Source: a bacterium (GTDB lineage: Bacteria; Patescibacteriota; Minisyncoccia; UBA6257; GWB1-50-10). Taken from it: DNA of 64,000 bases. Position numbers and translations under genes: made by a program. Below, piece by piece: positions 27,300 to 52,645 of this stretch. Where the stretch lies: NCBI GenBank assembly GCA_002686365.1, contig NZBZ01000004.1:27079-91078 (forward strand), written 5' to 3'. The notes beneath the pieces were generated by a model. The model worked only from the letters and a program-made list of their open reading frames with translations. It had not been told where the DNA came from and did no database searches. The first letter of the stretch is position 1. The number at the start of each line of letters is the position of its first letter.

Positions 27300-28304
27300 A
27301 TGCATGATGTGGTGACTATTGGGACTGCGACGCGGGATGTCTATATTACAAATGAGTCTTTTAAGGTTTTAAAGGACCCTAAACATCTTGAGAAGATGGG
27401 TTTTGATACTGGAGTTGCTGAATGTTTTGCGCTGGGCACGAAGATGGATATTGAGAGGCCGGCGTTTACTATTGGAGGCGGGGCGATAAATACCGCAGTT
27501 TCGTTTTCTCGGCTTGGTCTGAATGCTGCATCCTCTTTTAAGGTGGGTGATGATGAGTTTGGAGATGTGCTTGTGCGAAAAGTAAAAGATGAAAAGATTT
27601 CTCCTATTGTTTCTCGGGATAAGTCTGTTGGAACCGCATATTCTACTATTCTTTTGAATCCGAATGGAGAACGAACTGTGCTGGCTTACAGGGGGGCATC
27701 GAATACGATTCGTAAGAGAGATATTGTTTTGAAAAAGCTCAGGGCGAGATGGGCCTATATTGTTTCAGGACATTTGCCGATTGCGCTTTTGAAATCTATT
27801 GTTGAACATTTAAAGAAGAGGGGCATATGTATTGCGTTTGCTCCTTCTCAATATCATGTAGATATGGGACATAAGAAGCTTCGAGTTGTTTTGAGACATG
27901 TGGACGTTGTGCTTATGAATCGGGAAGAGGCAGCGCGCTTTACGAAAGAGGATTATAAGCGTGAGAAGTTAATTTTTAGGAAGCTTGATGAGGCGGTGGA
28001 TGGGATTGCGGTTATGACTGAGGGGTCAGGCGGTTCTCTTGTTTCAGATGGGCAGTTTATGTATCGGGCGGGAGTATTTAAAGAAAAGGAGCTTATTGAC
28101 AGAACTGGAGCCGGAGATGCGTTTGGTTCCGGTTTTGTTGCCGGAATAATGCGCGGGCATGATATACCTCATGCTTTGCGGCTCGCGAGCGCGAATGCGA
28201 CTTCTGTGGTTGAGAAGGTTGGAGCATCTACTGGGTCACTTACAGATAGAGAGTTTAAGAAGAAGCGGTGGCAGTATTTGGATTTGGATGTTGAGCCTCT
28301 TTAG
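27300..28304 (+). CDS. PfkB-family carbohydrate kinase (ribokinase-like)
   Basis: N-terminal VVTIGTATRDV and C-terminal DRTGAGDAFGSGFVAG motifs; ATG 27300 with TATAAT directly upstream (ORF track begins at GTG 27264). Confidence 0.8.
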   Translation: MHDVVTIGTATRDVYITNESFKVLKDPKHLEKMGFDTGVAECFALGTKMDIERPAFTIGGGAINTAVSFSRLGLNAASSFKVGDDEFGDVLVRKVKDEKISPIVSRDKSVGTAYSTILLNPNGERTVLAYRGASNTIRKRDIVLKKLRARWAYIVSGHLPIALLKSIVEHLKKRGICIAFAPSQYHVDMGHKKLRVVLRHVDVVLMNREEAARFTKEDYKREKLIFRKLDEAVDGIAVMTEGSGGSLVSDGQFMYRAGVFKEKELIDRTGAGDAFGSGFVAGIMRGHDIPHALRLASANATSVVEKVGASTGSLTDREFKKKRWQYLDLDVEPL

Positions 28305-28403
28305 ACTATACGAATATGCGAATCAAGCACGAATATCTAATATACGAAATGTACGAATAAGGAATTCGTATATTTGTGCCCCATTCGATATTCGTGAAGT
28401 TTT

Positions 28404-29654
28404 ATGACTCCACATGAAAAATTAGCAAATATATTACGTACTGATAAGGATTATATTCTGAAGATTAGCGAGAGGTTTCAGAAGGCGACAGGGAAGAAGG
28501 GCGTGATTGAGAATCTTGTAGAGGAGAATGAAAAACAGATTTCCGGACATCTGAAACGGATGGGAGTTTCTCGTGATGCAGGGCCTCAGGAGATTTTTTT
28601 GTCATTGGCAGATAAGATTGATTCTGATGAAGACAGGCTTCAAAAAGTTCTTCAGAATCCAAATGCTTCAAAGTCTGAGGATTTGGAGCGAGTACTTGCA
28701 TCAATTATAGACGTTGCTGGTAAGCACGTTGGCTTTTTTCTAAAGAAGGAGAAGGCAAGAGAATTTTTAATAAATGAGCCCCCAAAGAACGTGATGAAGT
28801 ATCTCAAGTATTCTTCGGTTGAGAAGATGCTTGCGAAAGAAGATCTTTTTGAGGTGTATAGTTCTTTGCGTTTTGTTGAGGATGAGGAGTGGATGAATAG
28901 CGTATTTTTTAAGCAGTATGAGAGTTTGAAGCCGGAAGATTTTGAGGAGCGGGAGATGAGGCTTCAGGTGTTGGATAAAAAGTGGGTGAAGGCTGCAGAT
29001 GGTTTTTTGAAACATAAGTGGCACAATATTAGCCATCTAAAGGAGATGGGCGTTGTGTTTGTTATTCCTGCAACATTTGGGATTGCTGGCGAGATTCTTC
29101 GTATGATGAGTCTCATATTCCATTACTTGAGTGAGGTGCCGTATTATTCTGATATATTTCGCGGTCTTGCAGAGAAGCCGTCATTCTCTAAAAACTTTAT
29201 CTCTCTTCTTCGCGGAGATGTTCTTGATAAAAAAATGCAGGAAGATGAGAAGTCTTTGTGGTTTGTTATTCAAAGGTATTTGGCAAAGGATGATCCAAAT
29301 GAGTGGAGATTATTTGTTCCGCATATTAATCCAGAGGCAATACACTGGTTGAGGGCAGAGGAAAATTTAATTGAGGCGGGTAAGCGGCTGGATGGCAATC
29401 ATGATGATTTGGGATTTTGGTTTCATTTGGATTGGGTCGGAGACTTTTTTAAGGATAAGAATGGAAATGATATTTTGATAAGCTTTGACTTGGTTGATGT
29501 TGTAATGAGTCTGGTTAAGAAGAAGGAGCAGATAAAGTTTTTGTATCATCATCAGGAGGCGCTGTGGAATAAGATTTTTATGGAGTATTTTGGGCGGGAG
29601 GAGTTAGTTAAACGTTCGCAGGATTATCTGCTTAAGGGGTATTTTAAGGTTTAG
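28404..29654 (+). CDS. Hypothetical protein (416 aa)
   Basis: Long ORF in core composition; no motif recognised. Confidence 0.5.
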   Translation: MTPHEKLANILRTDKDYILKISERFQKATGKKGVIENLVEENEKQISGHLKRMGVSRDAGPQEIFLSLADKIDSDEDRLQKVLQNPNASKSEDLERVLASIIDVAGKHVGFFLKKEKAREFLINEPPKNVMKYLKYSSVEKMLAKEDLFEVYSSLRFVEDEEWMNSVFFKQYESLKPEDFEEREMRLQVLDKKWVKAADGFLKHKWHNISHLKEMGVVFVIPATFGIAGEILRMMSLIFHYLSEVPYYSDIFRGLAEKPSFSKNFISLLRGDVLDKKMQEDEKSLWFVIQRYLAKDDPNEWRLFVPHINPEAIHWLRAEENLIEAGKRLDGNHDDLGFWFHLDWVGDFFKDKNGNDILISFDLVDVVMSLVKKKEQIKFLYHHQEALWNKIFMEYFGREELVKRSQDYLLKGYFKV

Positions 29655-29745
29655 GATTTATGAAGACATTACTTGAAGTAGTGCGCGATGCGGATCCCTC
29701 ACATAACAAGTTATGTAAGGGACAAGGAATACTAGATATTAATTT

Positions 29746-30606
29746 ATGAAAAGTTTAATAGAAGTATTACGGGAAGCAGAAAAGAAGCGTGTTGCGATTG
29801 GGCATTTTAACTTTTCCACGATTGCTCAGCTTCGGGCAATTGTAAGTGTTGCTCGAAAACTTGATAAGCCGATTGTGTTAGGGCTTTCTGAGGGGGAGCG
29901 TAGTTATTTTGGTCTTAAGTCCGCGGTGCATATTGTTCGGAATCTTCGGAGCGAGGGACTTCCCATTTTTCTGAACGCGGATCATACGTATAATCTTGGC
30001 GGTGTTCGAGAGGCAGCAGAGGCGGGAGTAGACTCGATTATTTTTGACGGAGCAAAGCTTTCGTATAAAGAAAACGAGAAGAAAACAAAACAGGCAGTTA
30101 AGCTTGTGAAGGATATTAATCCCGATATTTTGATAGAGGGGGAGTTGGGGTACATCGGGGAGTCATCTAAGGTTTTGGATGCAATACCGGATAAGATTGA
30201 TTTGGAGCATTTGCCGACTGTAGATCAGGCAAAATATTTTGTAGATGAGACTGGGGTGGATATGCTTGCTCCTGCAGTTGGAAATATTCATGGAATGTTT
30301 GGTAAGGCAAAGAATCCTCGTCTTCAGATTGATAGAATCCATAATATTAAAGATGCTGTGAAGATTCCTTTAGTTCTTCATGGGGGATCTGGAGTTACAG
30401 ATGAAGATTTTCAGGCTGCGATAAAGTCAGGAATAAGCCTTATTCATATTAGTACGGAGATTCGGGCTGTGTGGCGTGAAAGTTTGGAGCAGATACTTAA
30501 AAAGCATCCAAAGGAGATTGCTCCGTATAAGCTTATGTCTTCTGTTGTGCGTGACGTGGAGGGTGTTGTTGAGGAACGAGTGCGTTTGTTTTCCAAAACA
30601 TCTTAA
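29746..30606 (+). CDS. fba: Class II fructose-bisphosphate aldolase
   Basis: LNADHTY, FDGA, EGELGYIGE, HGGSG motifs of class II aldolases. Confidence 0.85.
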   Translation: MKSLIEVLREAEKKRVAIGHFNFSTIAQLRAIVSVARKLDKPIVLGLSEGERSYFGLKSAVHIVRNLRSEGLPIFLNADHTYNLGGVREAAEAGVDSIIFDGAKLSYKENEKKTKQAVKLVKDINPDILIEGELGYIGESSKVLDAIPDKIDLEHLPTVDQAKYFVDETGVDMLAPAVGNIHGMFGKAKNPRLQIDRIHNIKDAVKIPLVLHGGSGVTDEDFQAAIKSGISLIHISTEIRAVWRESLEQILKKHPKEIAPYKLMSSVVRDVEGVVEERVRLFSKTS

Positions 30607-30688
30607 TTTTTGATTAGTTTTTTGTTTTTTACCGCGTCTAGTAAGGCGTTTTTTGTTTGTGTTTTTACTCTAATGTATACTTAATGTA

Positions 30689-31975
30689 ATGGCAGAAAAA
30701 AAGACAGTGCCGGCAGAGAATCAGCAGGCAGCTCCGGCTGCTCCTGTGAAGGATGCTGGAGGGCTTAGAGCTGAGATAGAGAAGCTTCTTTTAGAGAAGG
30801 AGGATATTTCTATTATTCGGCTTGTTGATGCCCTTGTTCAGTATGCGAATCTTGCGCGCGCGTCAGATATTCATATTGATCCTGATGCTAAACGTCTTCG
30901 TGTTAGGTTTCGTATTGATGGGGTGATGCATGATGAGTTTGAATTTTTGAAAGATATCCAGTCAGAGGTTATTACCCGTATTAAGGTAGTTTCCGGACTT
31001 CGTACAGATGAACATCAGGCAGCGCAGGACGGCAGGTTTCGAATGCAGGTTGAGGGAATGGGAGATATTGATGTTAGAGTTTCTATTGCTCCTACGTATT
31101 ATGGTGAGAATTGTGTGATGCGGGTTCTTGCGGGCCAGTCGGAGAGTTTTGCGGTTGAGACTTTAGGTCTTTCGCAGAGCAATTTAAAAAAAGTTCTTCA
31201 GGCAATTGGAAGGCCGTATGGGATGATTCTTGTTACTGGTCCTACTGGGTCTGGAAAGACGACTACTCTTTACTCGATTCTTCGGAGGCTGAATACTCCG
31301 GAGGTTTCTATTATTACAATTGAGGGTCCTATTGAGTATTCGATTGCAGGCATTGATCAGATTCCTGTCCATAAAGATACAAATCTTACGTTTGCCGCAG
31401 GACTTAGATTTATTTTGAGGCAGGATCCTGATGTGATTATGGTAGGGGAGATTAGGGATGAGGAGACGGCAAATATTGCGGTGAATGCCGCAATGACAGG
31501 ACATTTGCTTTTGTCTACTCTTCATACTAATGATGCGGCGACTACTCTTCCCCGGCTTTTGGATATGAAGATTGAGCCGTTTCTTATTGCTTCGACAATG
31601 AATATTGCTATAAATCAGCGTTTAGTCAGGAAGATATGCCCTGATTGCCGTAAGGAGAAGAAAATCGGCGATTTGGAGCTTTCAAATATTAAAGAGATTG
31701 TTTCTGAAGAAATTCTGCAGGGAAGGCAGTCGTTTTATGTTGGGGAGGGATGTGATTTGTGCGGAGGGTCTGGATATCGTGGGAGAATTGGAATTCATGA
31801 GGTTTTGGAGGTTAGTGAGGAGATTCGGAAGCTTATTATGCAGCGCGCTGATGCGGATCAGATAAAACAGGCGTCTGTCCGCGGAGGCATGAGGACGATA
31901 TTGGAAGATGGATTTGAGAAGGCGCTTCAGGGCATTACTACGATTGAAGAGGTTCTTAGGGTTTCACGCGAATAA
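30689..31975 (+). CDS. GspE/PilB-family type IV pilus ATPase, short paralogue (no N-terminal MshEN/GspE_N extension)
   Basis: Walker A GPTGSGKTTTLYS, Asp box, His box, C-terminal tetracysteine CPDC...CDLCGGSGYRGR; 428 aa. Confidence 0.8.
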   Translation: MAEKKTVPAENQQAAPAAPVKDAGGLRAEIEKLLLEKEDISIIRLVDALVQYANLARASDIHIDPDAKRLRVRFRIDGVMHDEFEFLKDIQSEVITRIKVVSGLRTDEHQAAQDGRFRMQVEGMGDIDVRVSIAPTYYGENCVMRVLAGQSESFAVETLGLSQSNLKKVLQAIGRPYGMILVTGPTGSGKTTTLYSILRRLNTPEVSIITIEGPIEYSIAGIDQIPVHKDTNLTFAAGLRFILRQDPDVIMVGEIRDEETANIAVNAAMTGHLLLSTLHTNDAATTLPRLLDMKIEPFLIASTMNIAINQRLVRKICPDCRKEKKIGDLELSNIKEIVSEEILQGRQSFYVGEGCDLCGGSGYRGRIGIHEVLEVSEEIRKLIMQRADADQIKQASVRGGMRTILEDGFEKALQGITTIEEVLRVSRE

Positions 31976-31977
31976 TT

Positions 31978-32337
31978 ATGAAGGATATTGTACTTTTTCA
32001 GTCAGTTCCATTGCAGGAGAGGATAAACTTTGCCCGTCATTTGCATCTTATGATTAAGACGGGCCTTTCTTTGGTTGATGGGCTGCGTCTGATTCAGGAT
32101 CAGACTCCATCCAAGTCTTTAAAGAGGATTGTTACGGATCTTATTAAAGAGATAAATAATGGACACTTCCTTTCTGAGGGACTTAAGCGATATCGTCGTG
32201 TATTTGGCGAGTTTTTTGTGAGTGTGGTTGAGATTGGAGAGAAGAGTGGGAATTTATCAGAAAGCTTGCTTCATCTTGCTGTTGAGCTTCAGAAGAAGAA
32301 GGAGCTGCGGCAGAGGTTCGATGTCGTCCAGCCCTAA
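31978..32337 (+). pseudogene. pilC: PilC/GspF N-terminal fragment truncated by GC-rich islet E
   Basis: 119 aa matching the cytoplasmic N-terminus of GspF (compare with the intact copy at 44316); composition switches to GC-rich at about 32300, where the reading frame terminates. Confidence 0.6.
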
Positions 32338-32799
32338 TCGCTCGGCGAGCTGAGAAAGCTCGTTGTCTCCAAAGAGACTGTATTCTCGCTCCCGCATGGA
32401 AAGAAGTCTGTCAAAGAAGCGGCTGGGCTTCGTATCATACTCCGCACGCTCACCAAGCTCGTCACGGATCCGCTCGCGTTCAACATCGACATTCTCAGCT
32501 GGTATTCGGCCGCGCAGCAAAAGCCGATCGAACTTCCTCTTCACGAAGCTATCGACAAACGCACTCGCGGCCAGAAGCATGAAACAGGAGGCGCCGATGT
32601 AGTCTACCCACGTATCCCCACGCGCTTGCAGTTCTTCCGGAATCGAGTAGAACCGCACCTCGTGAAACCATGCTCGAAGCCTGTCTATCCCATAGGGGAC
32701 GAGAAAGAAGATGGCGTAGATGAGGACGGGCAGACTGAGACCACACATTGTGGCTCTGATTCTCCACAATGCTTGCTTTGCACGCTCAAACTCCCCCAT
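32257..32799 (-). CDS. Hypothetical membrane protein (GC-rich islet E)
   Basis: ATG with AGGAGG SD 9 nt upstream; one TM helix; its C-terminus is read through former pilC sequence. Confidence 0.4.
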   Translation of the reverse strand: MGEFERAKQALWRIRATMCGLSLPVLIYAIFFLVPYGIDRLRAWFHEVRFYSIPEELQARGDTWVDYIGASCFMLLAASAFVDSFVKRKFDRLLLRGRIPAENVDVERERIRDELGERAEYDTKPSRFFDRLLSMREREYSLFGDNELSQLAERLGLDDIEPLPQLLLLLKLNSKMKQAF

Positions 32800-32967
32800 C
32801 TCCCGACCTCCTATTGACAAAAATCTACGTATGTGTTACAGTAGATTCTTATTGTGGTAGGATGACATCTGCTCATTAAAAACTGAGGTCTCCCTCCTTC
32901 ACAGGGAGAAGCGCCGTAGCACGTTGGTTTGGGCGCTTCTCCACTGTTTGAAGAAGGGAGATAGACC

Positions 32968-33330
32968 GTGCTTATAGAAGTGCCTGATGACTTCGGCGAA
33001 CGTCTCATCAATCTGTTGGACAAGCTCGACGCCAAATCGTATGCGCGCATAGCAACCGCTCTGCACGCACAACGTCTACTCCGCCAGTTGAAGGTCAGCG
33101 ACGCACCCGGCTCCGTTTGCCGGAAGTGTTGGAAACAGGTTGATCCCATCGTCTGCGCGTTCACAAGAGATGACCACTCTGACGAGGCGGCGGTTTCTGT
33201 GACCGATGCTGTGGAGGAGATTCTCGACTGCATAAACTTCAGAGACGCCGCTGACACTCCAATCCGCGTGGATCTGGTCATCACGCCACAGCATGAGATC
33301 GCCGAGCCACAGCCCGGTCTTACAACGTAG
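32968..33330 (+). CDS. Hypothetical protein (GC-rich islet E)
   Basis: GTG start with AAGGGAG SD. Confidence 0.35.
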   Translation: MLIEVPDDFGERLINLLDKLDAKSYARIATALHAQRLLRQLKVSDAPGSVCRKCWKQVDPIVCAFTRDDHSDEAAVSVTDAVEEILDCINFRDAADTPIRVDLVITPQHEIAEPQPGLTT

Positions 33331-33472
33331 TGTAATGCGATACGCTACCAGCGTAAACGAGCCGCCCTTTGGGTGGCTTTTCCATTCCTTCCCCACCGTC
33401 TCGTCATTACAGCCCGTCCCACTTCACGTATACTCGCCTTACCCCAAACCAGACCAACATGAGGGAAGGCAC

Positions 33473-33889
33473 ATGACTCCGAACGCCGGGCGTTCACAAC
33501 CGTCCTCAGAATCAGGCGACGTCGGATCCTCAAACGCCTTCATAGACTCTTGGTACGAGAAACTAGGGCAGCAAGTCCCCCGCCCCGTGCTGGACGACGC
33601 CCTAAACGCCATGTTTGATGGCGGCCACGAGGCCCGGATCTCCTTGTATGAGTTTCTAGATTCGGACGAATTACAGGCCAGCGAGAAAGCTGCACGCATG
33701 TGGTCGTTCTACGTCGAGTGGGCCAAAGTGCAGCGCGCTCTCAAACTCTTGCAGCTCGACAGGGCAGAAGACGCTCAGGAACTGCTAGATGATCCGCTCG
33801 TCTTTCAAGGGCGTGTGCCAGACTTACAGCTTCAGGTTGATAGCTACACCTTAGAAAGGATTTCGTTTATGGAAGTAGGTCAGTTCTAG
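33473..33889 (+). CDS. Hypothetical protein (GC-rich islet E)
   Basis: ATG with GAGGGAAGG SD; the ORF track extends upstream to 33293. Confidence 0.3.
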   Translation: MTPNAGRSQPSSESGDVGSSNAFIDSWYEKLGQQVPRPVLDDALNAMFDGGHEARISLYEFLDSDELQASEKAARMWSFYVEWAKVQRALKLLQLDRAEDAQELLDDPLVFQGRVPDLQLQVDSYTLERISFMEVGQF

Positions 33890-33958
33890 CTTTTAGCTTC
33901 ATTTCCGCCAGAGGCGGATCCGCCTTGGGCGGAAGCTATTAGCTTCATTAGCTTATAG
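33886..33958. repeat. AGCTTTTAGCTTCATT...AGCTTCATTAGCTTATAG repeat unit interrupted by two small GC hairpins (TCCGCCAGAGGCGGA, TCCGCCTTGGGCGGA)
   Basis: Member of the repeat family also at 42489, 45532, 46727, 48496, 52577 and 54403. Confidence 0.7.
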
Positions 33959-33962
33959 ATTT

Positions 33963-33977
33963 TATAATAGATGTATG
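33963..33977 (+). promoter_or_regulatory. TATAAT box 6 nt upstream of the ATG of the pilin gene (leaderless-type promoter)
   Basis: TTTTATAATAGATGTATG module conserved at 45570 and 46766. Confidence 0.5.
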
Positions 33978-34463
33978 TTTTTGTTTTTCCTAAAAGCTAA
34001 AAGCTATAAGCTAAAAGCTGAAAGGGGTTTTACTCTTTTAGAGGTGCTTGTCGTGTTAGCTATTATTGCTGTGGTTGGGGCAGTGGTTTTGATGCTGATA
34101 AATCCTTCAGCACGATTTGCAAAATCGAGAAATAATGAGCGAGCTGCGGATTTGAATGTGATTTTGAATGCAGTAAGTCAGAACATTGCTGATAACAAGG
34201 GGAGTTTTTCCTGCAGTGCTGGGTACTTGCCTTCTACTTCGACGCGGATGGCTGTTGGGTTGGGAGATTATGATATTGTTCCATGTCTTTTTCCAACATA
34301 TCTTGTTGTTGTGCCTTATGATCCGAATGGGGAGGGTGTATTTTATACAAGTACTTCGAGTTATGATTCGGGTTATGACATTTTTCAGGATTCAGTTACG
34401 GGTAGGGTTATAATAGAGGCGCCGCTTGCAGAGCTTAGTGAGACGATTTCTGCGACGAGGTAG
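33975..34463 (+). CDS. Type IV prepilin-like protein with 18-aa leader (MFLFFLKAKSYKLKAERG then FTLLEV)
   Basis: Class III signal: Gly then F-T-L-L-E-V plus hydrophobic helix; the leader is encoded by the AAAGCTATAAGCT repeat. Confidence 0.75.
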   Translation: MFLFFLKAKSYKLKAERGFTLLEVLVVLAIIAVVGAVVLMLINPSARFAKSRNNERAADLNVILNAVSQNIADNKGSFSCSAGYLPSTSTRMAVGLGDYDIVPCLFPTYLVVVPYDPNGEGVFYTSTSSYDSGYDIFQDSVTGRVIIEAPLAELSETISATR

Positions 34464-34516
34464 TTTTTCTGGTCTTCTTGTGCGCGCGGTTTTTTTGTTG
34501 TTTAATACTCATTGTT

Positions 34517-35260
34517 ATGGAAGATATAAAACATATTATTTTAGAGATTCGTGCCGGTACTGGAGGGGATGAGGCGGCTCTTTTTGCTGCAGATTTGGAG
34601 AGTATGTATCAGAAGTATGCGGAAGATAAGGAGTTGAAGTTTGTGAAACTTGATTCGAGCGCTAACTCATTGGGGGGATATAAGAGTTTTTCAGCCCGGA
34701 TTTCAGGAGAGGGAGCATATAAGGACTTTCAGCACGAATCAGGAGTTCATCGTGTTCAGAGGATTCCTGCCACAGAGAAGTCTGGACGAGTTCATACCTC
34801 AACTGCATCAGTTGCAATTTTGCCTGAGGTAGAGCCGGAGGAGATAGAGATTAATCAATCTGACTTGGAGATTTCGTTTTTTCGGTCTTCGGGTCCTGGA
34901 GGGCAGAATGTGAATAAGGTGGAGACTGCAGTGCGTATTCTGCATAAGCCGACTGGTCTTGTGGTTTCATCGCAGGCTGGTAGGGCGCAGCATGCAAATC
35001 GTGAGACTGCTTTGTCTATGCTTCGGGCAAAGCTCTATGAGGCAAAGCGTGAGCAGGAAGTAGGGTCTGTTTCAGAGCTTCGGCGGGAGCAGATTGGTTC
35101 TGCGGAGCGGGCAGAGAAGATTCGTACGTATAATATTCCGCAGGACAGGATTACAGATCATAGGATTGGGAAGAAGTGGGGTAATGCTACAAAGATTTTG
35201 GAAGGAGATTTTGGAAAGATTGTGAAGGGGTTTCAAAAGGCGGAAAAAGGTAAGAAGTAA
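34517..35260 (+). CDS. prfA: Peptide chain release factor 1-like protein lacking N-terminal domain 1
   Basis: IRAGTGGDEAALFA, PAT tripeptide (RF1-type), GGQ motif SGPGGQNVNK; only about 247 aa. Confidence 0.7.
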   Translation: MEDIKHIILEIRAGTGGDEAALFAADLESMYQKYAEDKELKFVKLDSSANSLGGYKSFSARISGEGAYKDFQHESGVHRVQRIPATEKSGRVHTSTASVAILPEVEPEEIEINQSDLEISFFRSSGPGGQNVNKVETAVRILHKPTGLVVSSQAGRAQHANRETALSMLRAKLYEAKREQEVGSVSELRREQIGSAERAEKIRTYNIPQDRITDHRIGKKWGNATKILEGDFGKIVKGFQKAEKGKK

Positions 35261-35290
35261 AAATCTCATCTTATAAGATGAGATTTTTTA

Positions 35291-36682
35291 CTATCCCTCC
35301 AGAATATCGATGTCGCGTTGGAATTTTTGGGCTTTTACTACAACTGGTTCTCCGTATACCCATCTATAGGTATACCATCTGCCTCCGGAGTAGTACTGGG
35401 CTGCGGCGCATCTCTCAGAGAGAATTTGAGCATCTACAATGTGTTTGTTTTCGCTCACATAGTTTCTGCAGGAGCGGGAGTTTAAGGAGTCTCTTAAATA
35501 GAGCGCTGTTGCTGAGAATGCGTCTGCATTGTTCCATGGGTTGGGCGGATTGTTTCCTGTTACTTTTTTAATTGAGGACTCATATAGTTTCCATGTAGAG
35601 GGAATGAATTGCGCTGGTCCCATTGCTCCTCCGTGATTTCCATCTCGAAGAATTGGACAGGAGACATACGCGGCGCGGGAGCTTGGATTAATATCTAGTC
35701 GTTTTAAGATGTCTTCGAAGACTGGAATGTCTTTTGAGCGCATAACAGTAGTGCCTGTTTGAGGGAGTACTTTGTCGTATCTGCACTGACCTACATTTCT
35801 GCCTAGGGCGGATTCTTGGTTTAGGATCGCTAGGATGAAGGCGGCGCGTACCCCTGTAGCTTTTTCCGCAAGTTTCGCATATTCGTATGCTTTTTCAAAT
35901 GTGAGTTCTCCGCCGCCCAGAAGCTGGAATATGCGTTTTCGGATTTCTGCCGCAGTTTCCTGTGACTCTTTTAGGAGTTTTTGGTATTTTGATTCTTCTC
36001 CCTCGGTTATTTCCAGAAGATCTTCTTTTTCGTTTTGTGTGTACTGGACATTTTTTTTCTGTCCCTGCTGGGCAGTCTTTAAATTTTTAGTGTCTTCTTT
36101 TTCGAGTACAAGCTCACTTTTTTTAGTGACTAGTTCTCCTCGGAGATTTACTATTTCCTGAAGAGCAAGGCGTAGGTTGTCTTGTACGCGCGCGATTTCG
36201 TTTATTTCTCCGAAGAAGTCTGAAATTTGTTCGTTTGCCAGAAGGATTTGGATAAGGCCCTGTCTGTCCTGTTCGTAGATTTGCTGGACAGCGCTGGCTA
36301 ATGCGTCTTTGTGGTCGTCTATTCTATTTTCAGTGTGGTTAATATTTTTTTGTGTTTCTATAATGTTCTGTCCAACTTTTTCGATTGTAATGTCAGTTGC
36401 CTGTATTTGGAGATTAAGTTTTTTAATTCTGGAGTTTAAGGAGTATATCTCGTTTTTTAGAGTTTTTCCCTGTGTTTGGTATGTTTCTACCTGCCCGCGC
36501 TGCTCTTCTATCTGTTCTTCCAATTCTTCGAGTTCACGCTCGAGTTCTTCTCTTGATCTATTGTCGTCCTCTGCTGCAATGGCTTGCTGCGCAGAAAGAT
36601 AGCTCGTTTGCGTAAAGACGATGGTTTGTATAAGTAGTATTGCTAGTATGAGGATTTTTAGTCTTTCCATCGGGTTTATCAT
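35291..36682 (-). CDS. Secreted coiled-coil protein with C-terminal lytic transglycosylase (MltB-like) domain
   Basis: Signal peptide, long heptad-rich region, C-terminal GGAMGPAQFIPSTW motif. Confidence 0.6.
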   Translation of the reverse strand: MINPMERLKILILAILLIQTIVFTQTSYLSAQQAIAAEDDNRSREELERELEELEEQIEEQRGQVETYQTQGKTLKNEIYSLNSRIKKLNLQIQATDITIEKVGQNIIETQKNINHTENRIDDHKDALASAVQQIYEQDRQGLIQILLANEQISDFFGEINEIARVQDNLRLALQEIVNLRGELVTKKSELVLEKEDTKNLKTAQQGQKKNVQYTQNEKEDLLEITEGEESKYQKLLKESQETAAEIRKRIFQLLGGGELTFEKAYEYAKLAEKATGVRAAFILAILNQESALGRNVGQCRYDKVLPQTGTTVMRSKDIPVFEDILKRLDINPSSRAAYVSCPILRDGNHGGAMGPAQFIPSTWKLYESSIKKVTGNNPPNPWNNADAFSATALYLRDSLNSRSCRNYVSENKHIVDAQILSERCAAAQYYSGGRWYTYRWVYGEPVVVKAQKFQRDIDILEG

Positions 36683-36754
36683 ATCACAAAACCCCCACGC
36701 CTATGCATAGGTGTGGGGGTGTACCTTTTTAGTTGTTGTGATTTTGGATGAGTT

Positions 36755-37486
36755 TTATTTCTTTTCTTCTTGTTTTTCTGCTTTTGCAGGCTGGCCTCCT
36801 TTATCTTCTACAGGCGTTGCTCCTTCGCCTTCCGCAGGTGTTTCTCCTTCGCCTTCTGCGGGCGCTTCTCCTTCACCTTCTGTTCCTTCTGCTCCTTCTT
36901 CACCTTCTGCTGGTTCCGGCTCTTCAATCTCTTCTTCTTTTGGTTCGGAGATTGTTGCGACTACTGTTTCAGGCTGAACGAGTACTTTTACATTTTTTGG
37001 AATTTCCAGATTGCTTACATGGAGTGTGTCTCCTGCCTCTTCCAGGCTCTCGAGGGATATTTCTATTTTATGCGGGAGATCTGCGGGCAGAGCTTCTATC
37101 TCAAGCTCTTCTGTAACTTTTACCAGAATGAGTCCAAGTTTAATTCCTGGAGCTTCACCTGTGAATTCAATGGGTATGTGAGTTTGAATTTTTTCATCCA
37201 TCCGGATTTGGTGCAGATCAACGGATAAATACTTTCCTGTTACAGGATTTTTCTGCACCTCTGCTATTAGCGTAGGGACTTTTTCTTTTCCTCCAATGGA
37301 AACTTGGATGATAGTGTGTTCCCCTGCTTCTTTGTAGACTTTGTCGAATTCTTTTTCAGAAATACTAATATGTTTATTTTTTTCTCCGTGTCCGTAGATT
37401 TCCGCAGGAATGAGCCCTTCTTTGCGGAGGGTTTTTACCTTTTTGCCAAGGACTGTGCGGGTTTGAATGTTTAGTTCAATTGCCAT
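36755..37486 (-). CDS. rplY: 50S ribosomal protein L25 / general stress protein Ctc with Glu/Pro/Ala-rich tail
   Basis: MAIELNIQTRTVLGKKVKTLRKEGLIPAEIYGHG start typical of L25. Confidence 0.85.
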   Translation of the reverse strand: MAIELNIQTRTVLGKKVKTLRKEGLIPAEIYGHGEKNKHISISEKEFDKVYKEAGEHTIIQVSIGGKEKVPTLIAEVQKNPVTGKYLSVDLHQIRMDEKIQTHIPIEFTGEAPGIKLGLILVKVTEELEIEALPADLPHKIEISLESLEEAGDTLHVSNLEIPKNVKVLVQPETVVATISEPKEEEIEEPEPAEGEEGAEGTEGEGEAPAEGEGETPAEGEGATPVEDKGGQPAKAEKQEEKK

Positions 37487-37496
37487 ATTTGTGGAA

Positions 37497-37778
37497 TTAT
37501 TCTTTTTCCTTCTTTTCTATCTTCTTTTTAGCTCTTGTTACTTTTTTGGTTTTCTTTTTCTGTATTTTCTCTTTGTTTGCTTTTGCAGCGCGCGCTTTGA
37601 AGCGTTCAGCTCGGCCTGCTGTGTCAATTAGGGTCTGCTTGCCTGTATAGAAGGGGTGGCAGTTAGAGCAGATTTCCACCTCTAGTTTTTCTTTTGTTCC
37701 TCCAATAGTAAAAGAGTGCCCGCATGCGCAGGTTGTTTTTGCTTTAGGATAGTAGGCTGGATGTATATCTTTTTTCAT
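37497..37778 (-). CDS. rpmE: 50S ribosomal protein L31
   Basis: [10 protein letters not shown] start; CxxC...CxxH zinc ribbon. Confidence 0.9.
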
Positions 37779-37797
37779 AACGTACTAGATTGTAGGG

Positions 37798-37817
37798 GTT
37801 TTTAGCTTGTTTGGCAA
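37798..37817 (+). repeat. Left copy of 20-bp perfect direct repeat GTTTTTAGCTTGTTTGGCAA flanking islet F
   Basis: Identical to 38652-38671. Confidence 0.85.
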
Positions 37818-37920
37818 CCCCTGTTTTCGGGTTTTGTAAAAAAATCCGCCTCGGCAGTGAGATGCTTTGGCGGGTGTACGATGTTTGCGGGGCGTGATGG
37901 CTCGGCCACGTTCGCGCGGG

Positions 37921-38571
37921 TCAGGCGGTGAGTGCGACCCAGACGTTGGGATCTTGTCCCCATTTGCCCGTAGGAGGATGCGCGACGATGACTTCCACGA
38001 GAGGCTTCCACTTCGTGAGCATGTCGGTGTTGTCATTTGCCGCACAGGCTATGAGTATTCGTAGGATGTAGTCGATTCCTCCCTCCAGACACTTCTGGGG
38101 CGTTTCGGGGAGGCCGATGTTCCTGACAGTGGAGCACACTTCTTGGGAGAAGGCTTCGTATGCCTCGTCGAGGCCTTTCGGCATCTCCAGGCCTTCGGCC
38201 AGCTTGTCGAGTATGATCGTAGATACGTACCCGTCGTCTGGAACGCTATCTACGAAGAGTGTCTCGAGCTCGCCTTTGGTGATAGGGCCGTATGCAAGGA
38301 GATTCTCCCACAGCTCTTCGTCGGCCCATTCGGGTCGCGTGTCAGGTACTGGATTGCTTGCCGAGAGATGAATTACTCTCTCGACTCTTTCTGTCAGCGT
38401 TCTCAGAAGTGCCTGTTGGATCTTCTTTGTGTCGCAGTCGTCTCCTGATGTCAGGCTCCATCCAGCTTCGGTTGCCTGGAGAATGGGCCTGATTGTTTCC
38501 TCCAAGGCATCAACTGTTGTCTCGTCCGTGTGTTCGAGCAGAGCGACTTGCAGACGTTCCCAGCTTTCCAT
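37921..38571 (-). CDS. Hypothetical protein (GC-rich islet F)
   Basis: ATG with AGGGAGG SD 9 nt upstream; 216 aa acidic. Confidence 0.45.
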   Translation of the reverse strand: MESWERLQVALLEHTDETTVDALEETIRPILQATEAGWSLTSGDDCDTKKIQQALLRTLTERVERVIHLSASNPVPDTRPEWADEELWENLLAYGPITKGELETLFVDSVPDDGYVSTIILDKLAEGLEMPKGLDEAYEAFSQEVCSTVRNIGLPETPQKCLEGGIDYILRILIACAANDNTDMLTKWKPLVEVIVAHPPTGKWGQDPNVWVALTA

Positions 38572-38651
38572 TGGGGAGCCTCCCTTTTGGCGGCGCTGGC
38601 GTTTAGGGCGTCACTGTGTTTTTTGTACTTGTTTTTTACTTGTGTGTCAAT

Positions 38652-38671
38652 GTTTTTAGCTTGTTTGGCAA
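38652..38671 (+). repeat. Right copy of 20-bp perfect direct repeat GTTTTTAGCTTGTTTGGCAA
   Basis: Identical to 37798-37817; brackets an 834-bp GC-rich insert. Confidence 0.85.
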
Positions 38672-38688
38672 GGTTTTGTTGACAATCA

Positions 38689-38720
38689 GGACCCCTTCCT
38701 TATAATAAGGGCGAGCTTAG
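38689..38720 (+). promoter_or_regulatory. Consensus sigma70-type rRNA promoter TTGACA-17 nt-TATAAT
   Basis: TTGACAATCAGGACCCCTTCCTTATAATAAGG read directly, about 110 nt upstream of the 16S gene. Confidence 0.6.
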
Positions 38721-38823
38721 AGAAGCTGGTTTTTTTCTGCCCTGACAGATGTTTGACATATGTAGTAGTAGGTAATTAACAGAGGTGTTAATAATAGAGA
38801 ATTTTTTTAGTTGTCCCAATTTA

Positions 38824-40312
<1,489 letters not shown>

Positions 40313-41898: not shown

Positions 41899-42519
41899 TT
41901 GGTCGGCGTTTTCTTTTCTAGTAAAATAGAGCTTATGACTTTATCCTTTCTAACGGGGTTTACCATTTTGTTTTTGACCGTAGGTCTGTTTTTTCAGATA
42001 TTTTTGAGAGGCAGGATTCGGTTTTTTCAGTATCTATTTTTTATAGCTCTTTTGGGAATTTTGGGGGTTTATCTGTATCTTGTGTATGGACAGTATGTGC
42101 TCTGGCGTGATTCAGGTCCTCCGTCCAGCTTTTTTGTTCCTCCGCATAGAAGCGCTTTGTATGTTTTTGGGTATCATTTTACTCGTTTTGGTCTGCAGTA
42201 TCTTATTTCTTTAGGGGTTTCGATTTTGTTTTTCTTTCTTTCTTTGCGTCTGAATCAAAGATTTGGAGAGAGATTTTTTGAAAGAGAAGAGTTGTGGCTT
42301 GGGGCATTTTCTATTTTTCTTTTAGGGAATCCAGTATGGAATTACGCATGGATTTATTACCTTTTACTTCTAGGTCTTTTGTCAGTCTTGGGGTCTCTTT
42401 TTGCGCAGTATGTTTTTCGTATTCGTGAGAGATTTCCTTTGTACTGGTTATGGATTCCGTGTGCTCTTGGAGTTATACTTATACAAAAGCTTATAGCTTA
42501 TGGCTTCATTAGCTTTTAG
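41899..42519 (+). CDS. Polytopic membrane protein, unknown function
   Basis: 5-6 TM helices; its C-terminus KLIAYGFISF is encoded by the AGCTTATAGCTTATGGCTTCATTAGCTTTTAG repeat. Confidence 0.4.
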   Translation: MVGVFFSSKIELMTLSFLTGFTILFLTVGLFFQIFLRGRIRFFQYLFFIALLGILGVYLYLVYGQYVLWRDSGPPSSFFVPPHRSALYVFGYHFTRFGLQYLISLGVSILFFFLSLRLNQRFGERFFEREELWLGAFSIFLLGNPVWNYAWIYYLLLLGLLSVLGSLFAQYVFRIRERFPLYWLWIPCALGVILIQKLIAYGFISF

Positions 42520-42588
42520 CTTTTTGTTATCTTGTCGAATTTTTTCCGTAAAGCTAACAAGCTATAAGCTAACACACTAGAAGCTAAT
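42489..42588. repeat. AGCTTATAGCTTATGGCTTCATTAGCTTTTAGC ... AAGCTAACAAGCTATAAGCTAACACACTAGAAGCTAAT repeat block
   Basis: Family member; overlaps the stop of 41899..42519 and precedes pilB. Confidence 0.7.
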
Positions 42589-42590: not shown

Positions 42591-44315
42591 ATGATTCCAT
42601 TACCTCCAGATAAAATTAAGAATCTTCTTGTTCAGGAGGGGCTTGTTGATGTTGAAAAGTTTGATGCTGCACTTGGGGAGGCGCAGCGTAAGCGTCAGGA
42701 AGTTGTTGAGGTTCTTATCTCACAGGGACTCTTGAACAAGGATTATTTTTATACTCTTCTTGCAAAGCATTTGGGAGTAGATCGGATACGGATTCGTACT
42801 TCTGATATTGATGAGAAGGTTCTTCGGATGCTTCCGGAGGATGTAGCTCGTGAGAGGCGGGCTATTGTTTTTGCCAGAGAGACAGATGGTACGTTTGATG
42901 TGGCAATGGAGAATCCTACAGATCTTGAGACTACTGATTTTTTGTCTTTGAAGCTTGATGGATCGGTGAAGGCATACTTGGCAACAGATGAGGATTTGAA
43001 TAGGGGATTTTCTTTGTATGAGGAGAAGTTAACTCAGGACTTTAAGAAAATTATTGAGGATAGTATTCGGGAGTCTTTGAGGTCAAAGGTTCAGGGTGAG
43101 GAGGATCTTGAACAGGCTGCTGAAGATCTTCCTATTGTTGCGATTGTTGATAATTTGCTTGCTTATTCGGTATCTTCTAGGGCTTCTGATATCCATGTGG
43201 AGATTTTAGATGATGCGGTTCTTGTTCGATTTCGTATTGATGGCGTTCTCCATGAGATTATTCGTATGCCTAAAGAGATTCATCCTGCAGTTATTGCCAG
43301 GATTAAGATTCTTTCCGGACTTCGGGTTGATGAACATTCGAAGCCGCAGGATGGGCGTTTTCGGCATAAGATAGGAGATGAGAATATTGATATTCGTGTT
43401 TCCGCGCTCCCAACGTTTTATGGAGAGAAGATTGTCATGCGTCTTTTGAAGGGCGCGGACCGGCCTCTTTCTTTAGCTGAACTTGGAATTGTTGATGATC
43501 GTATGCGTGATGTAATTGTAGATGCGATTTCGAAGAGCTATGGAATGTTTTTGGTGTGTGGTCCTACTGGGTCTGGAAAGACGACGACGCTTTATTCAAT
43601 TCTTAATATGTTGAATCGTCCTGAGGTGAATATTGTCACAGTTGAGGATCCAATTGAGTATGATATGCGGTTTGTGAATCAGGTTCAGGTGAATGCTGCT
43701 GCTGGTATTACGTTTGCCGGCGGTCTTCGGTCAATCTTGAGGCAGGATCCTAATATTATTATGGTTGGTGAGGTTCGGGATGCTGACACTGCAAGCATTG
43801 CTGTGCAGTCCGCGCTTACCGGGCATCTTGTTCTTTCTAGTTTGCATACGAATGATGCTCCTACTGCAATTCCACGGCTTTTTGATATGAAACTTCCTCC
43901 ATTTTTGATTGCTGCGGTTTTGAACGCGGTATTTGCTCAGCGTCTTACTCGGAGGATCCATCTTCAGTGCATAGAGTCGTATACGCCGGATTCTGCGACG
44001 CTTGATAGTATCTCTGATCAGTTAAAGGCATTGAATGTGGATCCCGGAGCAATAAAGATGCCTACTACGTTTTATCGCGGGAAGGGGTGTGATGCGTGCA
44101 GCGGCACTGGGTATTTGGGGCGAGTTGGTATTTTTGAGGTCTTGCATATTACGGGGGCGCTTCGAAAGCTTATTGTTAGTCCTCAATTTTCTCTTGACGC
44201 GCTTCGGCAGGCTGCTCGTAAGGAGGGAATGGTGACGATGTTTGAAGATGGTTTGCAGAAGGTTGAGCGTGGTGTTACTACAATTGATGAGGTGTTTAGA
44301 GTAATTCGTGAATAA
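42591..44315 (+). CDS. pilB: Type IV pilus assembly ATPase PilB (GspE family, full length)
   Basis: N-terminal GspE_N-like domain, Walker A GPTGSGKTTTLYS, Walker B/Asp box, tetracysteine CDACSGTGYLGR; 574 aa. Confidence 0.9.
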   Translation: MIPLPPDKIKNLLVQEGLVDVEKFDAALGEAQRKRQEVVEVLISQGLLNKDYFYTLLAKHLGVDRIRIRTSDIDEKVLRMLPEDVARERRAIVFARETDGTFDVAMENPTDLETTDFLSLKLDGSVKAYLATDEDLNRGFSLYEEKLTQDFKKIIEDSIRESLRSKVQGEEDLEQAAEDLPIVAIVDNLLAYSVSSRASDIHVEILDDAVLVRFRIDGVLHEIIRMPKEIHPAVIARIKILSGLRVDEHSKPQDGRFRHKIGDENIDIRVSALPTFYGEKIVMRLLKGADRPLSLAELGIVDDRMRDVIVDAISKSYGMFLVCGPTGSGKTTTLYSILNMLNRPEVNIVTVEDPIEYDMRFVNQVQVNAAAGITFAGGLRSILRQDPNIIMVGEVRDADTASIAVQSALTGHLVLSSLHTNDAPTAIPRLFDMKLPPFLIAAVLNAVFAQRLTRRIHLQCIESYTPDSATLDSISDQLKALNVDPGAIKMPTTFYRGKGCDACSGTGYLGRVGIFEVLHITGALRKLIVSPQFSLDALRQAARKEGMVTMFEDGLQKVERGVTTIDEVFRVIRE

Positions 44316-45530
44316 ATGCGGTATAAATACACAGCGACACAATCTGATGGGAAGATTGCAGATGGTGAGATGGATGCTGTAGATGTTCCTCAGGTATTGC
44401 AGTTTATCGCCTCCAGAGGGTTGAAGCCTATCAGTGTTCAGAAGACTGGAGGTTTTTGGCAGAAGCTGAAGCATGTTCAGGTTTTTGGCGGCAGTATTAC
44501 GCCCATAGATCAGATTTTTATATCAAAGTATTTGGGGCTTATGCTTAAGATTGGCACGAGTCTTTTGCAGGCAATTAATATTCTTCTTGAAGACTTTAAG
44601 AAGCCTGCTGTGAGAGAGTTTCTTGTTCGGGTGCGTACTAGTCTTGAGCAGGGTCAGCCCTTCCACCTCGTTTTTCAGAATTATCCTAAGGTGTTTAGTT
44701 CTGTGTATGTGAATCTTGTAAAAGCCGGAGAGTCATCTGGAAATCTTGATAGTACATTTGAGAATTTGAGCGAATCTCTTGCTAAAGAGAAGGATTTGAA
44801 AGATCAGGTGAGAGGAGCTCTTGTCTATCCTATTATTCTGCTTGGCGCTTCATTTCTTATTCTTGTGTTTTTGATAACATTTGCTCTTCCTCGAATTTCT
44901 CAGGTTTTTACTGATGGAGGATTTGATCCTCCCCTTTTTTCTCGTGTTGTATTTAGCATAGGTCTTTTGTTTGGCAAGATTGGCTGGATTGTTGTAGTTG
45001 GTTTTATTTTGGCCATTATTCTCGCGTTTTATTTCTACCGCGCCTCTATTTTGTTTAAGCGGTTTGTTATTAGAACTCTTTCCGGGCTTCCTATGATTCG
45101 GGATGTTGTGCGAAAGATTGCGCTCCAGCGATTTTCTGCTACGCTTTCGTCTCTTATTCGTGCTGGCATGCCTTTTACTGAATCGCTTGAAATTACGGCC
45201 GATGCTGTCGGAAATACAGAGCTTAAAGACGCTCTTCTTCGAATTTCTCGAGAGGGAATTTCTAAGGGTCTTACTGTTGGAGAGGCGTTCAAACGAGAAA
45301 CTTTTTTCCCGCAGACTGTGATAAATCTTATTTCTGTTTCAGAGAGAGCCGGTCATATTGAAGAGGTGCTTGACGCTCTTTCGGATTTTTACGCAAAGGA
45401 AGTTTCTAGTTCTTTGAAGACGGTAGTGTCATTTCTTGAGCCTGTTCTTCTTATGTTTGTTGGCGGTATTGTGGGAGTTATTGCTTTATCTGTGATTATT
45501 CCGGTGTATCAGCTTACGTCGCAGTTTTAA
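44316..45530 (+). CDS. pilC: Type IV pilus platform protein PilC (GspF family)
   Basis: Two GspF repeats, three TM segments; start overlaps the pilB stop (TAAATG); 404 aa. Confidence 0.9.
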   Translation: MRYKYTATQSDGKIADGEMDAVDVPQVLQFIASRGLKPISVQKTGGFWQKLKHVQVFGGSITPIDQIFISKYLGLMLKIGTSLLQAINILLEDFKKPAVREFLVRVRTSLEQGQPFHLVFQNYPKVFSSVYVNLVKAGESSGNLDSTFENLSESLAKEKDLKDQVRGALVYPIILLGASFLILVFLITFALPRISQVFTDGGFDPPLFSRVVFSIGLLFGKIGWIVVVGFILAIILAFYFYRASILFKRFVIRTLSGLPMIRDVVRKIALQRFSATLSSLIRAGMPFTESLEITADAVGNTELKDALLRISREGISKGLTVGEAFKRETFFPQTVINLISVSERAGHIEEVLDALSDFYAKEVSSSLKTVVSFLEPVLLMFVGGIVGVIALSVIIPVYQLTSQF

Positions 45531-45531
45531 T

Positions 45532-45566
45532 CTAGCTTATAGCTTTTAGCTTCATTAGCTTTTAGG
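45532..45566. repeat. TCTAGCTTATAGCTTTTAGCTTCATTAGCTTTTAG repeat followed by the TTTTATAAT-ATG module
   Basis: Family member. Confidence 0.75.
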
Positions 45567-45581
45567 TTTTATAATAGATGT

Positions 45582-46724
45582 ATGTTTTTATCTTTCTTGA
45601 AAGTTATAAAGACTTGCTTGCCGGTAGGCGGGGCAGGTAGGTATAAGTTACGAACTTGTAAGGGCTTTACTCTTGTTGAGGTGATGATTGCTCTTGCTGT
45701 GCTTGTAGCCCTTTCAACTTTTGGGTTTACAAGCTTGTTTGGTATTCGTGAGTCCAGGAGTGTTCGAAGCGCTGCCCAGGGAATTAATTCTGTACTGCAG
45801 GATGCCAGAGAGCGTTCTCTTACTCAGGCAGACGGCATGAGCTGGGGAGTGCGTTTTCTTCATCCTTCAGAGGATGTTTATGAGTATCAGGAGTTTTTTG
45901 ATGCTCCGTTTGGAGTACACAAGGCGCATTTTTTGTCGAACGGCGTGCAGTTTTCTGATTTGCCTTTAGGAGATACATTTGATGTTGCGTTTCAGTCGGT
46001 GAACGGAATGTCGTCGTTGGATAAAATTATCTCAGTTGCCAGCTCTGGAAAGGGAGGAGTTGTAGGAGATGTAATTCTTCGTTCTGTTGGTTTTATTTCT
46101 CCTCGTCTTGAGAAGGGAGTTGCGGGGTATTGGCATTTTGATCAAGAGAATGGTTCAGTGGCCTATGATGCGAGTGGTCTTGAAGGAAATGGAAGTATTT
46201 CCGGCGCAGTGTGGGATGGGCCATGTAGGGCTGGGGGATGCCTTCGATTTGATGGGGCAGATGATTATGTTTCTGGATCTTTTCCTCACACATTTTCTTC
46301 TTTTTCTATTTTGGGATGGGTTCGATTGGATGGAGATGGTGGTAATAAGGGGGCTCTTTGGTCTGGGTATGATGGTTCTTTGGGGCGGATATACGCACGA
46401 GTTTTGGGCTCATCCCGGAAGCCAAGCTTTTATACGAATCCTGGCGGCGGTGAGGGGACGACTGCTGCTATGACAGCTCTTTCAGATGGATGGCATCATC
46501 TTGCGTATGTATATGATGGTATCTCAAAGAAGATTTATATAGATGGCGTTGAGGATGTTTCAGAGGATAGCCCTGATCTTTTATTTCCTCTTGATTCTTT
46601 TGAGATTGGGAGGAGTGAGCAGGATGGGGCTAATGTTCTTCGGGGATGGATTGATGAGCCTCGTGTGTACGACAGAGCGCTTTCCTCAGAAGAGATTTGG
46701 GATCGGTATAATGATTTACGTTAA
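45582..46724 (+). CDS. Prepilin-type protein (pseudopilin) with C-terminal LamG/concanavalin-like lectin domain
   Basis: Leader MFLSFLKVIKTCLPVGGAGRYKLRTCKG then FTLVEVMIALAVL; LamG-like motifs LRFDGADDYV...GWHHLAYVYDG...KIYIDGV...RVYDRALS. Confidence 0.7.
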   Translation: MFLSFLKVIKTCLPVGGAGRYKLRTCKGFTLVEVMIALAVLVALSTFGFTSLFGIRESRSVRSAAQGINSVLQDARERSLTQADGMSWGVRFLHPSEDVYEYQEFFDAPFGVHKAHFLSNGVQFSDLPLGDTFDVAFQSVNGMSSLDKIISVASSGKGGVVGDVILRSVGFISPRLEKGVAGYWHFDQENGSVAYDASGLEGNGSISGAVWDGPCRAGGCLRFDGADDYVSGSFPHTFSSFSILGWVRLDGDGGNKGALWSGYDGSLGRIYARVLGSSRKPSFYTNPGGGEGTTAAMTALSDGWHHLAYVYDGISKKIYIDGVEDVSEDSPDLLFPLDSFEIGRSEQDGANVLRGWIDEPRVYDRALSSEEIWDRYNDLR

Positions 46725-46726
46725 TT

Positions 46727-46762
46727 TATAGCTTATGGCTTTTAGCTTCATTAGCTTTTAGG
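46727..46762. repeat. TAGCTTATGGCTTTTAGCTTCATTAGCTTTTAGG repeat plus TTTTATAAT module
   Basis: Family member. Confidence 0.75.
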
Positions 46763-46779
46763 TTTTATAATAAATGTGT

Positions 46780-48493: not shown

Positions 48494-48495
48494 CG

Positions 48496-48531
48496 AGCTT
48501 TTAGCTTCTAGCTTCATTAGCTTTTAGGGGA
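48496..48531. repeat. GAGCTTTTAGCTTCTAGCTTCATTAGCTTTTAG repeat
   Basis: Family member. Confidence 0.75.
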
Positions 48532-48541
48532 GAATCTCTTT

Positions 48542-48574
48542 TAGCTATAAGCTATAAGCTATAAGCTATAAGCT
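48542..48574. repeat. (AGCTATA)x5 heptanucleotide tandem repeat ending 5 nt before the ATG of the ATPase gene
   Basis: Read directly. Confidence 0.85.
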
Positions 48575-52610: not shown

Positions 52611-52645
52611 ACGAAAAAAACCGCTTAATGCGGGTAGTAGTTGGC

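Follow-up and report, generated by a model that had tools for sequence, protein, structure and literature searches.

Among Patescibacteria, type IV pili are believed to act in attachment to the host and in the uptake of DNA. Two distinct type IV pilus (T4P) systems have been shown experimentally in the saccharibacterium Nanosynbacter lyticus TM7x; the second, T4P-2, takes part in binding to the host and can be dispensed with in culture, and its pilins have been proposed to leak out by way of system 1 (PMC11623550). Here we describe a second pilus operon in a marine, ultra-small, Paceibacteria-like member of the Patescibacteria, whose relatives carry a main T4P cluster together with such an operon. 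The operon lies in a 64,000-nt stretch of contig NZBZ01000004.1 (positions 27,079 to 91,078, assembly GCA_002686365.1), hereafter the window, to which all coordinates refer. Very probably, about 3.5 kb of it was replaced by a GC-rich foreign segment, or islet, of ca. 1.5 kb (~32317..33817, not assigned to a strand, each boundary being good to about 5-10 nt), the operon decaying by deletion-replacement. The operon resembles T4P-2 of TM7x in its separate PilB2/PilC2 pair, its own pilins, the lack of a retraction ATPase and its position beside the main T4P cluster. Unlike T4P-2, the type of operon found here and in Paceibacteria-like relatives is devoid of PilM, PilN and PilO genes and is associated with a pilin-anchored LVIVD beta-propeller, and in the window the system is broken.

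A scan with PilB2 over one genome per species yielded 80 loci, the best of them from Patescibacteria (Paceibacteria, Parcubacteria and others), with 55-65 % identity. In every related locus reaching past the ATPase (ca. 75 loci), the short PilB was followed by a full-length PilC (ca. 330-520 aa; 350-366 aa in the closest relatives), in agreement with the initial annotation, made from the sequence alone, which described the pair in the window as a disrupted and decaying module. The closest loci (L003, L013 and L016) share the fixed order PilB-PilC-minor pilin-LVIVD propeller-minor pilin-W131-major pilin. In these three loci, the first minor pilin (ca. 150-165 aa, N_methyl/GspH-like) comes directly after pilC, the propeller protein (ca. 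456-489 aa) combines a pilin-like N-terminus with an LVIVD beta-propeller, and the second minor pilin has ca. 165 aa. W131, of 131 aa, has an N-terminal helix of the pilin type and is followed by one or two major-pilin-like genes. A W131 homolog was present downstream of pilC in 27 of the 41 loci examined, most of the others ending too soon. This conservation of gene content and order indicates that the short-PilB/short-PilC operon is a separate system maintained across Paceibacteria-like genomes. The window departs from the conserved order, and only PilB, a stump of PilC, a 23-codon tail of W131 and a pilin are left.

The first of these survivors, pilB2 (30689..31975, + strand), is an intact open reading frame (ORF) for a 428-aa assembly ATPase of the GspE/PilB family, which is short and lacks the MshEN N-domain. 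The product spans the complete Pfam domain T2SSE (PF00437, positions 3-370 of 370, E = 1.9e-120), and it is 63-65 % identical to its best orthologs and similar to them in length (404-438 aa among orthologs), indicating that this short length is normal for the ATPases of second operons. Two of its substitutions affect highly conserved residues, and both are identical in all assemblies of the locus: D213G (codon 213, 31325-31327), in the E-D-P Asp box, where Asp is found in 81 of 81 homologs, and Q226P, where 80 of the 81 have Gln. The Asp box of PilB-type ATPases contributes to the catalytic site (PMC5424180). The Mg-coordinating Glu of this box, as defined in the same work, appears to be retained in PilB2 and the T2SSE domain is complete, with the Asp box and Q226 altered; impaired activity is plausible from the Asp-box substitution.

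The truncated pilC2 gene (31978..32337, + strand) starts 2 nt past the pilB2 stop codon, so that, like its counterparts in all relatives, it comes directly after the cognate ATPase of the GspE/PilB type. It has 119 codons; 1 to ~113 (31978 to ~32316) are native, and the last 6, ahead of the stop, are foreign. Both the short ATPase and the restriction of the PilC gene to its first 119 codons had been recognised in the initial annotation. The stump matches only positions 1-97 of the 125 in Pfam T2SSF (PF00482, E = 1.1e-18), a partial first repeat, and positions ~59-166 of the NCBIfam PilC/GspF/HofC models, which have about 400 residues (401-406), with all scores far under the cut-offs. Compared with the PilC/GspF platform proteins (including NCBIfam TIGR02120 and NF052607), its homology is with the first of the T2SSF repeats, a cytoplasmic one, and it amounts to about a quarter of the protein. 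Whereas these proteins carry two T2SSF repeats in a chain of ca. 350-400 aa, each followed by a transmembrane (TM) segment, the stump has one partial repeat, no TM segment (its alignment to the orthologs stops just ahead of TM1), no second repeat and a foreign end. These comparisons identify the 119-aa 'T2SS F family protein' as a pseudogene fragment of pilC whose truncation is derived.

We also considered that this ORF might be a functional stand-alone gene for a PilC N-domain, which selection maintains as, for instance, a regulator or a partner of PilB2. Its reading frame has no interruption and, with its ATG so close to the preceding stop, is translationally coupled to pilB2, which is itself still an open frame; furthermore, the cytoplasmic N-domain of PilC folds independently and contacts the ATPase. 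No gene of this kind occurs in the relatives, and the only short PilC-like proteins in a collection of 5.8 billion proteins were the window's own, P0003, which is short because it was cut by a contig end, and P0004 (116 aa), which has no contig on record and whose context could not be placed. The comparison thus gave no evidence for a conserved stand-alone gene limited to the GspF N-terminus. Likewise, the ORF stops 6 codons into foreign DNA, as would be the case for an accidental stop, PilB2 is substituted at invariant residues, and the remainder of the machine is deleted, all of which makes a selected stand-alone function very unlikely.

At the left junction, the alignment with the orthologs is good up to SGNLSESLLHLAVELQKKKELRQR (ELQKKKELRQR; codon ~113, nt ~32316) and then fails: the orthologs go on with K-[VI]-x-x-A-[LM]-[IV]-Y-P (e.g. 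KVRSAMIYP) and the first TM helix, whereas the window reads FDVVQP and a stop. An apparent extension of the pilC homology to 32502 by tblastn was discarded as noise past codon ~113, with almost no identities beyond the stop. As noticed in the initial annotation, which placed the switch at about 32300, the frame ends where composition changes, from a GC content of 0.40-0.45 in the flanks (host, 0.42-0.44) to 0.51-0.57 within the islet (0.55 overall), returning to 0.40 by 33850. The GC skew, which is +0.2 to +0.45 in the flanks, is about 0 or negative within the islet, and the trinucleotide signature of the islet differs from that of the host.

The right junction appears to lie inside the W131 gene. 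Because the pilin gene of relatives is preceded by W131, we compared W131 with the tail of the last gene of the islet (gene C, 33473..33889), whose final 23 codons plus stop (33818..33889, + strand) encode PDLQLQVDSYTLERISFMEVGQF. Aligned without gaps and anchored at the end, this peptide and the exact C-terminus of the L003 W131, TDLQLTVKTVDLSTVSLEELPNF, give a BLOSUM62 score of 37, which was reached by 2 of 40,000 random 23-mers from the six frames of the window (empirical p ~5e-5) and by one of 1,649 ORF C-termini, that of gene C itself. The GC and codon-phase signals change at ~33815, the same place where the W131 tail starts. Farther downstream, the major-pilin-like gene of the operon (33975..34463, + strand) is intact, codes for a prepilin leader and an N_methyl motif (Pfam N_methyl), and its product is 42-46 % identical, over the full length, to the pilins situated 3′ of W131 in relatives.

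Taking L003, L013 and L016 as a reference, the sequence lost runs from pilC codon ~114 to W131 codon ~108, an estimated 3.4-3.6 kb. A search for the missing 3′ part of pilC, as had been suggested initially, did not find it in the islet or in the rest of the 64-kb window, and the three intervening operon genes left no remnant there beyond a generic N-terminal similarity to pilins. We therefore favour deletion-replacement over the insertion put forward in the initial annotation, because there is no 3′ part of pilC beyond the islet, four more genes are missing, and the right end falls inside W131, about 3.5 kb having given way to about 1.5 kb. A single event of this type would have cost the operon three complete genes, most of another one and two thirds of the platform protein; the ca. 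1.5 kb of foreign DNA filling the gap is different in GC content, in the skew between strands, in oligonucleotide signature and in its signals for translation. The same end state could also have been reached in two steps, an insertion and then a deletion. The outcome is two junction chimeras: gene A of the islet runs on into antisense pilC, and the W131 tail forms the end of gene C.

Several observations weigh against this scenario. The W131 remnant has just 23 residues and fits one ortholog (L003) far better than the others, and the hidden Markov model of the W131 family does not detect it. As the best PilB2 ortholog is 65 % identical, the ancestral gene order was deduced from distant genomes, and without a close relative the event can be neither dated nor separated into steps. 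With respect to the decay of PilB2, the protein deviates at four conserved columns, which is at the top of the range for its relatives (0-4) and not beyond it, and D213G spares the Mg-coordinating Glu, so that PilB2 may still be active. Lastly, two SPAdes-type contigs from other, mutually independent assemblies break inside the islet, at 32767-32821, with a 55-nt overlap: L002, which contains the left junction, ends at 32821, and L087, which contains the right junction, starts at 32767.

These two contig ends could be taken as a sign of an assembly chimera, i.e., a GC-rich segment from another organism joined by the assembler, as could the sharp change in composition and the origin of the window in a metagenome-assembled genome. 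Four more public contigs with this locus, from marine (Tara Oceans) assemblies, were recovered through exact-protein look-ups and a scan of DNA, and all four were 100 % identical to the window. Contig L001 (ENA, a MEGAHIT-style k127 contig) contains the whole locus (28141-39975), including the entire islet and both junctions, and the Tara contig CEPX01147941 spans 31360-33068, with the left junction and the centre of the islet. Together with L002, the left junction is crossed by three assemblies besides the window's own contig, and three assemblies read through 32767-32821. Additionally, the two sides of the islet are parts of one operon, with pilB/pilC to its left and the pilin and W131 tail to its right, and an in-frame W131 tail at the right edge is not what a chimera would produce. 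These results show that the islet junctions are not an assembly artefact, a chimera being extremely improbable; the breaks at 32767-32821 may hint at population heterogeneity, or strain-level structural variation, at the divergent promoter of the islet.

The islet contains three genes. Gene A (32257..32799, - strand, 180 aa) encodes a predicted membrane protein with two TM segments, corresponding to two hydrophobic 19-mers, and a charged tail. Its ORF extends over 32257-32820 and, as stated in the initial annotation, its C-terminus is read through former pilC, the last ~20 codons (32257-32316) being antisense pilC before the stop; the native 3′ end of the gene is thus lost or replaced. Gene B (32968..33330, + strand, 120 aa) is a complete ORFan. 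Gene C (+ strand, 138 aa) is foreign from 33473 to ~33817 and then continues in frame into the W131 tail. The GC contents at the first, second and third codon positions are 0.61/0.40/0.62 for gene A, 0.65/0.40/0.63 for gene B and 0.63/0.37/0.63 for gene C, a pattern typical of coding sequences with 55 % GC (~0.62/0.40/0.62) that the overlapping alternative ORFs do not show. A strong Shine-Dalgarno motif precedes each of them, AGGAGG 8 nt ahead of the ATG of gene A, AAGGGAG before the GTG start of gene B and GAGGGAAGG before the ATG of gene C, whereas in host genes such motifs are mostly absent and a TATAAT is often found a few bases ahead of the ATG. The pair of plus-strand genes had been predicted initially as overlapping; the pair is present, but the overlap exists only with an ATG at 33293 for gene C, and the start at 33473, which leaves no overlap with gene B, is better supported by codon periodicity, by the GAGGGAAGG site and by public gene calls. 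In the divergent intergenic region there is a putative sigma-70-like promoter facing gene B (32814..32842, + strand), TTGACA-17-TACAGT with a TG, which is a consensus match at 10 of 12 positions. Annotators should be aware that the three 'hypothetical proteins' of this locus include two junction chimeras.

Database searches did not identify relatives of the islet. Genes A and B matched only themselves among 5.8e9 proteins, and a full HMMER search of 1.84e9 representatives with gene C returned gene C alone. None of the three products had a usable match in Pfam, PHROG, PADLOC or NCBIfam; with PHROG and PADLOC there was nothing below E = 0.009, the matches being short and marginal. A search of IMG/VR returned 24-residue chance matches and no relative, and the islet DNA did not match phages or plasmids by blastn. 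Single-sequence AF2 models of gene B (pLDDT 48) and gene C (pLDDT 47) were uninformative for the fold. The possibility of a structured RNA or rRNA fragment was rejected, as the islet has no Rfam match (gathering score or E below 0.05) and contains three ORFs with codon periodicity; similarly, ARAGORN found no tRNA or tmRNA in the window.

Alternatively, the islet might be, or once have been, a discrete element of a mobile or defensive nature (for instance a phage moron, a toxin-antitoxin-like cassette or a small integrative element) that inserted in pilC and later caused a deletion next to it. The islet has compact divergent genes with their own promoter-like site and Shine-Dalgarno motifs, it encodes a small two-TM protein and two small soluble proteins, and it shares the 64 kb with at least five further ORFan islets rich in GC, features that would all fit such an element. 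Conversely, the islet has no transposase or integrase domain (Pfam, NCBIfam), there are no terminal direct or inverted repeats or target-site duplication at its borders (31000-35000), both of its ends lie inside reading frames, and the profile, phage, plasmid and viral searches described above were negative; we consider this origin unlikely. Because it has no homologs, no mobile genes and no border repeats, we read the islet as a random fragment, and it looks like a piece of a donor genome rather than an intact mobile element.

Naturally transformable bacteria capture foreign DNA by illegitimate or homology-facilitated illegitimate recombination. The deletion-replacement proposed here resembles such captures in that native DNA was swapped for a shorter unrelated fragment, with the junctions inside genes and without the hallmarks of mobile elements, and by analogy the same mechanism could have operated. 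The likeliest route of acquisition would be the uptake of environmental or host DNA and its illegitimate recombination in a naturally competent cell. The segment also resembles ORFan islets of atypical composition, with deviant GC, skew and oligonucleotide usage and genes without homologs, and differs from the usual ones in being unusually small, in its location inside an operon and in the chimeric ORFs at both ends. Decay of an operon through horizontally acquired DNA is an ordinary and familiar process, seen here in a poorly known phylum.

Considering the known role of PilC/GspF, the second pilus machine would be unable to assemble without its platform protein and minor pilins. The remaining pilin (33975-34463) may still be exported or assembled by the PilB and PilC proteins of the main cluster, in the manner suggested for the T4P-2 pilins of TM7x. 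The locus thus offers an example, at the base-pair level, of the loss of an accessory pilus in an episymbiotic, genome-reduced bacterium, with one replacement removing the platform protein and the set of minor pilins and adhesin while the ATPase and the major pilin linger. Given the roles in host attachment and DNA uptake attributed to these pili, loss of the second system may mark a changed host association in this marine lineage.

The main cluster contains an intact paralogous pair, PilB1-PilC1 (42591..45530, + strand), as reported in the initial annotation. PilB1 (42591-44315, 574 aa) has MshEN and T2SSE domains, and PilC1 (44316-45530, 404 aa) has two T2SSF repeats. PilB2 and PilB1 are 49 % identical, and alignment of the PilC stump to PilC1, along the lines of a comparison suggested initially, gave 25 % identity. 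These values, together with the conservation of the short-PilB operon as a separate system, argue that the two pairs are ancient paralogs and not the product of a recent duplication, so that the earlier description of the upstream pair as a duplicated module does not hold. At the end of this intact cluster there is a gene for a 786-aa homolog of TraG/VirD4-like coupling proteins (48580-50940; T4SS-DNA_transf and TrwB_AAD_bind domains), and next to it are the genes (45582-46724 and 46774-48042) for two pilin-like proteins that carry Laminin_G_3 lectin domains.

Right after the stop of gene C begins a native promoter-like module of AGCTTWT heptamers (33884..33974, + strand), which ends with a TATAAT 7 nt before the ATG of the pilin gene. 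At 33888-33949, this module contains a 46-nt insertion, composed of a 30-nt GC-rich palindrome or double hairpin (TCCGCCAGAGGCGGATCCGCCTTGGGCGGA) and a 16-nt duplication, the resulting 16-nt direct repeat flanking the hairpin (AGCTTTTAGCTTCATT / AGCTATTAGCTTCATT). The same module is found upstream of the pilin-like genes at 45582 and 46774, and a version of ~50 nt (TAGCTTATAGCTTTTAGCTTCATTAGCTTTTAGGTTTTATAATAGATGT-ATG) is conserved directly upstream of pilin-like genes. The AGCTTWT motif has 27 matches, compared with 2.5 expected, and forms arrays at 33884-34019, 42484-42570, 45531-45581, 46725-46830, 48494-48574, 52576-52611 and 54406-54430. Inverse copies occur inside prepilin leaders, where they encode ...LKAKSYKLKA.... 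The module may be a shared promoter/leader cassette for pilins or a substrate for recombination.

The other GC-rich islets of the window (GC 0.52-0.55), at least five, are located at 6106-7081, 7942-10109, 12829-14125, 37800-38650 and 52620-53790, the last one beginning inside a heptamer module. Their trinucleotide signature is unlike that of the host, several carry the Shine-Dalgarno motifs that are mostly absent from host genes, and their small ORFs have no Pfam, PHROG or PADLOC match. The codon-position composition of the gene at 37921-38571, the one for which it was measured, is similar to that of the genes in the pil islet; there is no sequence similarity between the pil islet and the others, which have only a loosely shared composition. 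It is tempting to speculate, although we regard it as unlikely, that the six or more ORFan islets with Shine-Dalgarno motifs could be traces of a systematic influx of foreign DNA into marine Patescibacteria that has not been described so far, for example with a specific virus or the host cell as the source and competence pili as the way in, with the genes being expressed and selected and chimeras such as gene C serving as raw material for new genes. This wider pattern of GC-rich ORFan islets is a more intriguing lead than the pil locus itself.

Elsewhere in the window, a complete 16S rRNA gene (38823-40312), the sole match with Rfam, stands alone, with no 23S rRNA, 5S rRNA or tRNA gene in the 64 kb, indicating that the rRNA genes are unlinked. 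The GC skew of the + strand is strongly and uniformly positive along the window, with a monotonic cumulative rise, and nearly all genes are on this strand; the foreign islets appear as local reversals of the skew.

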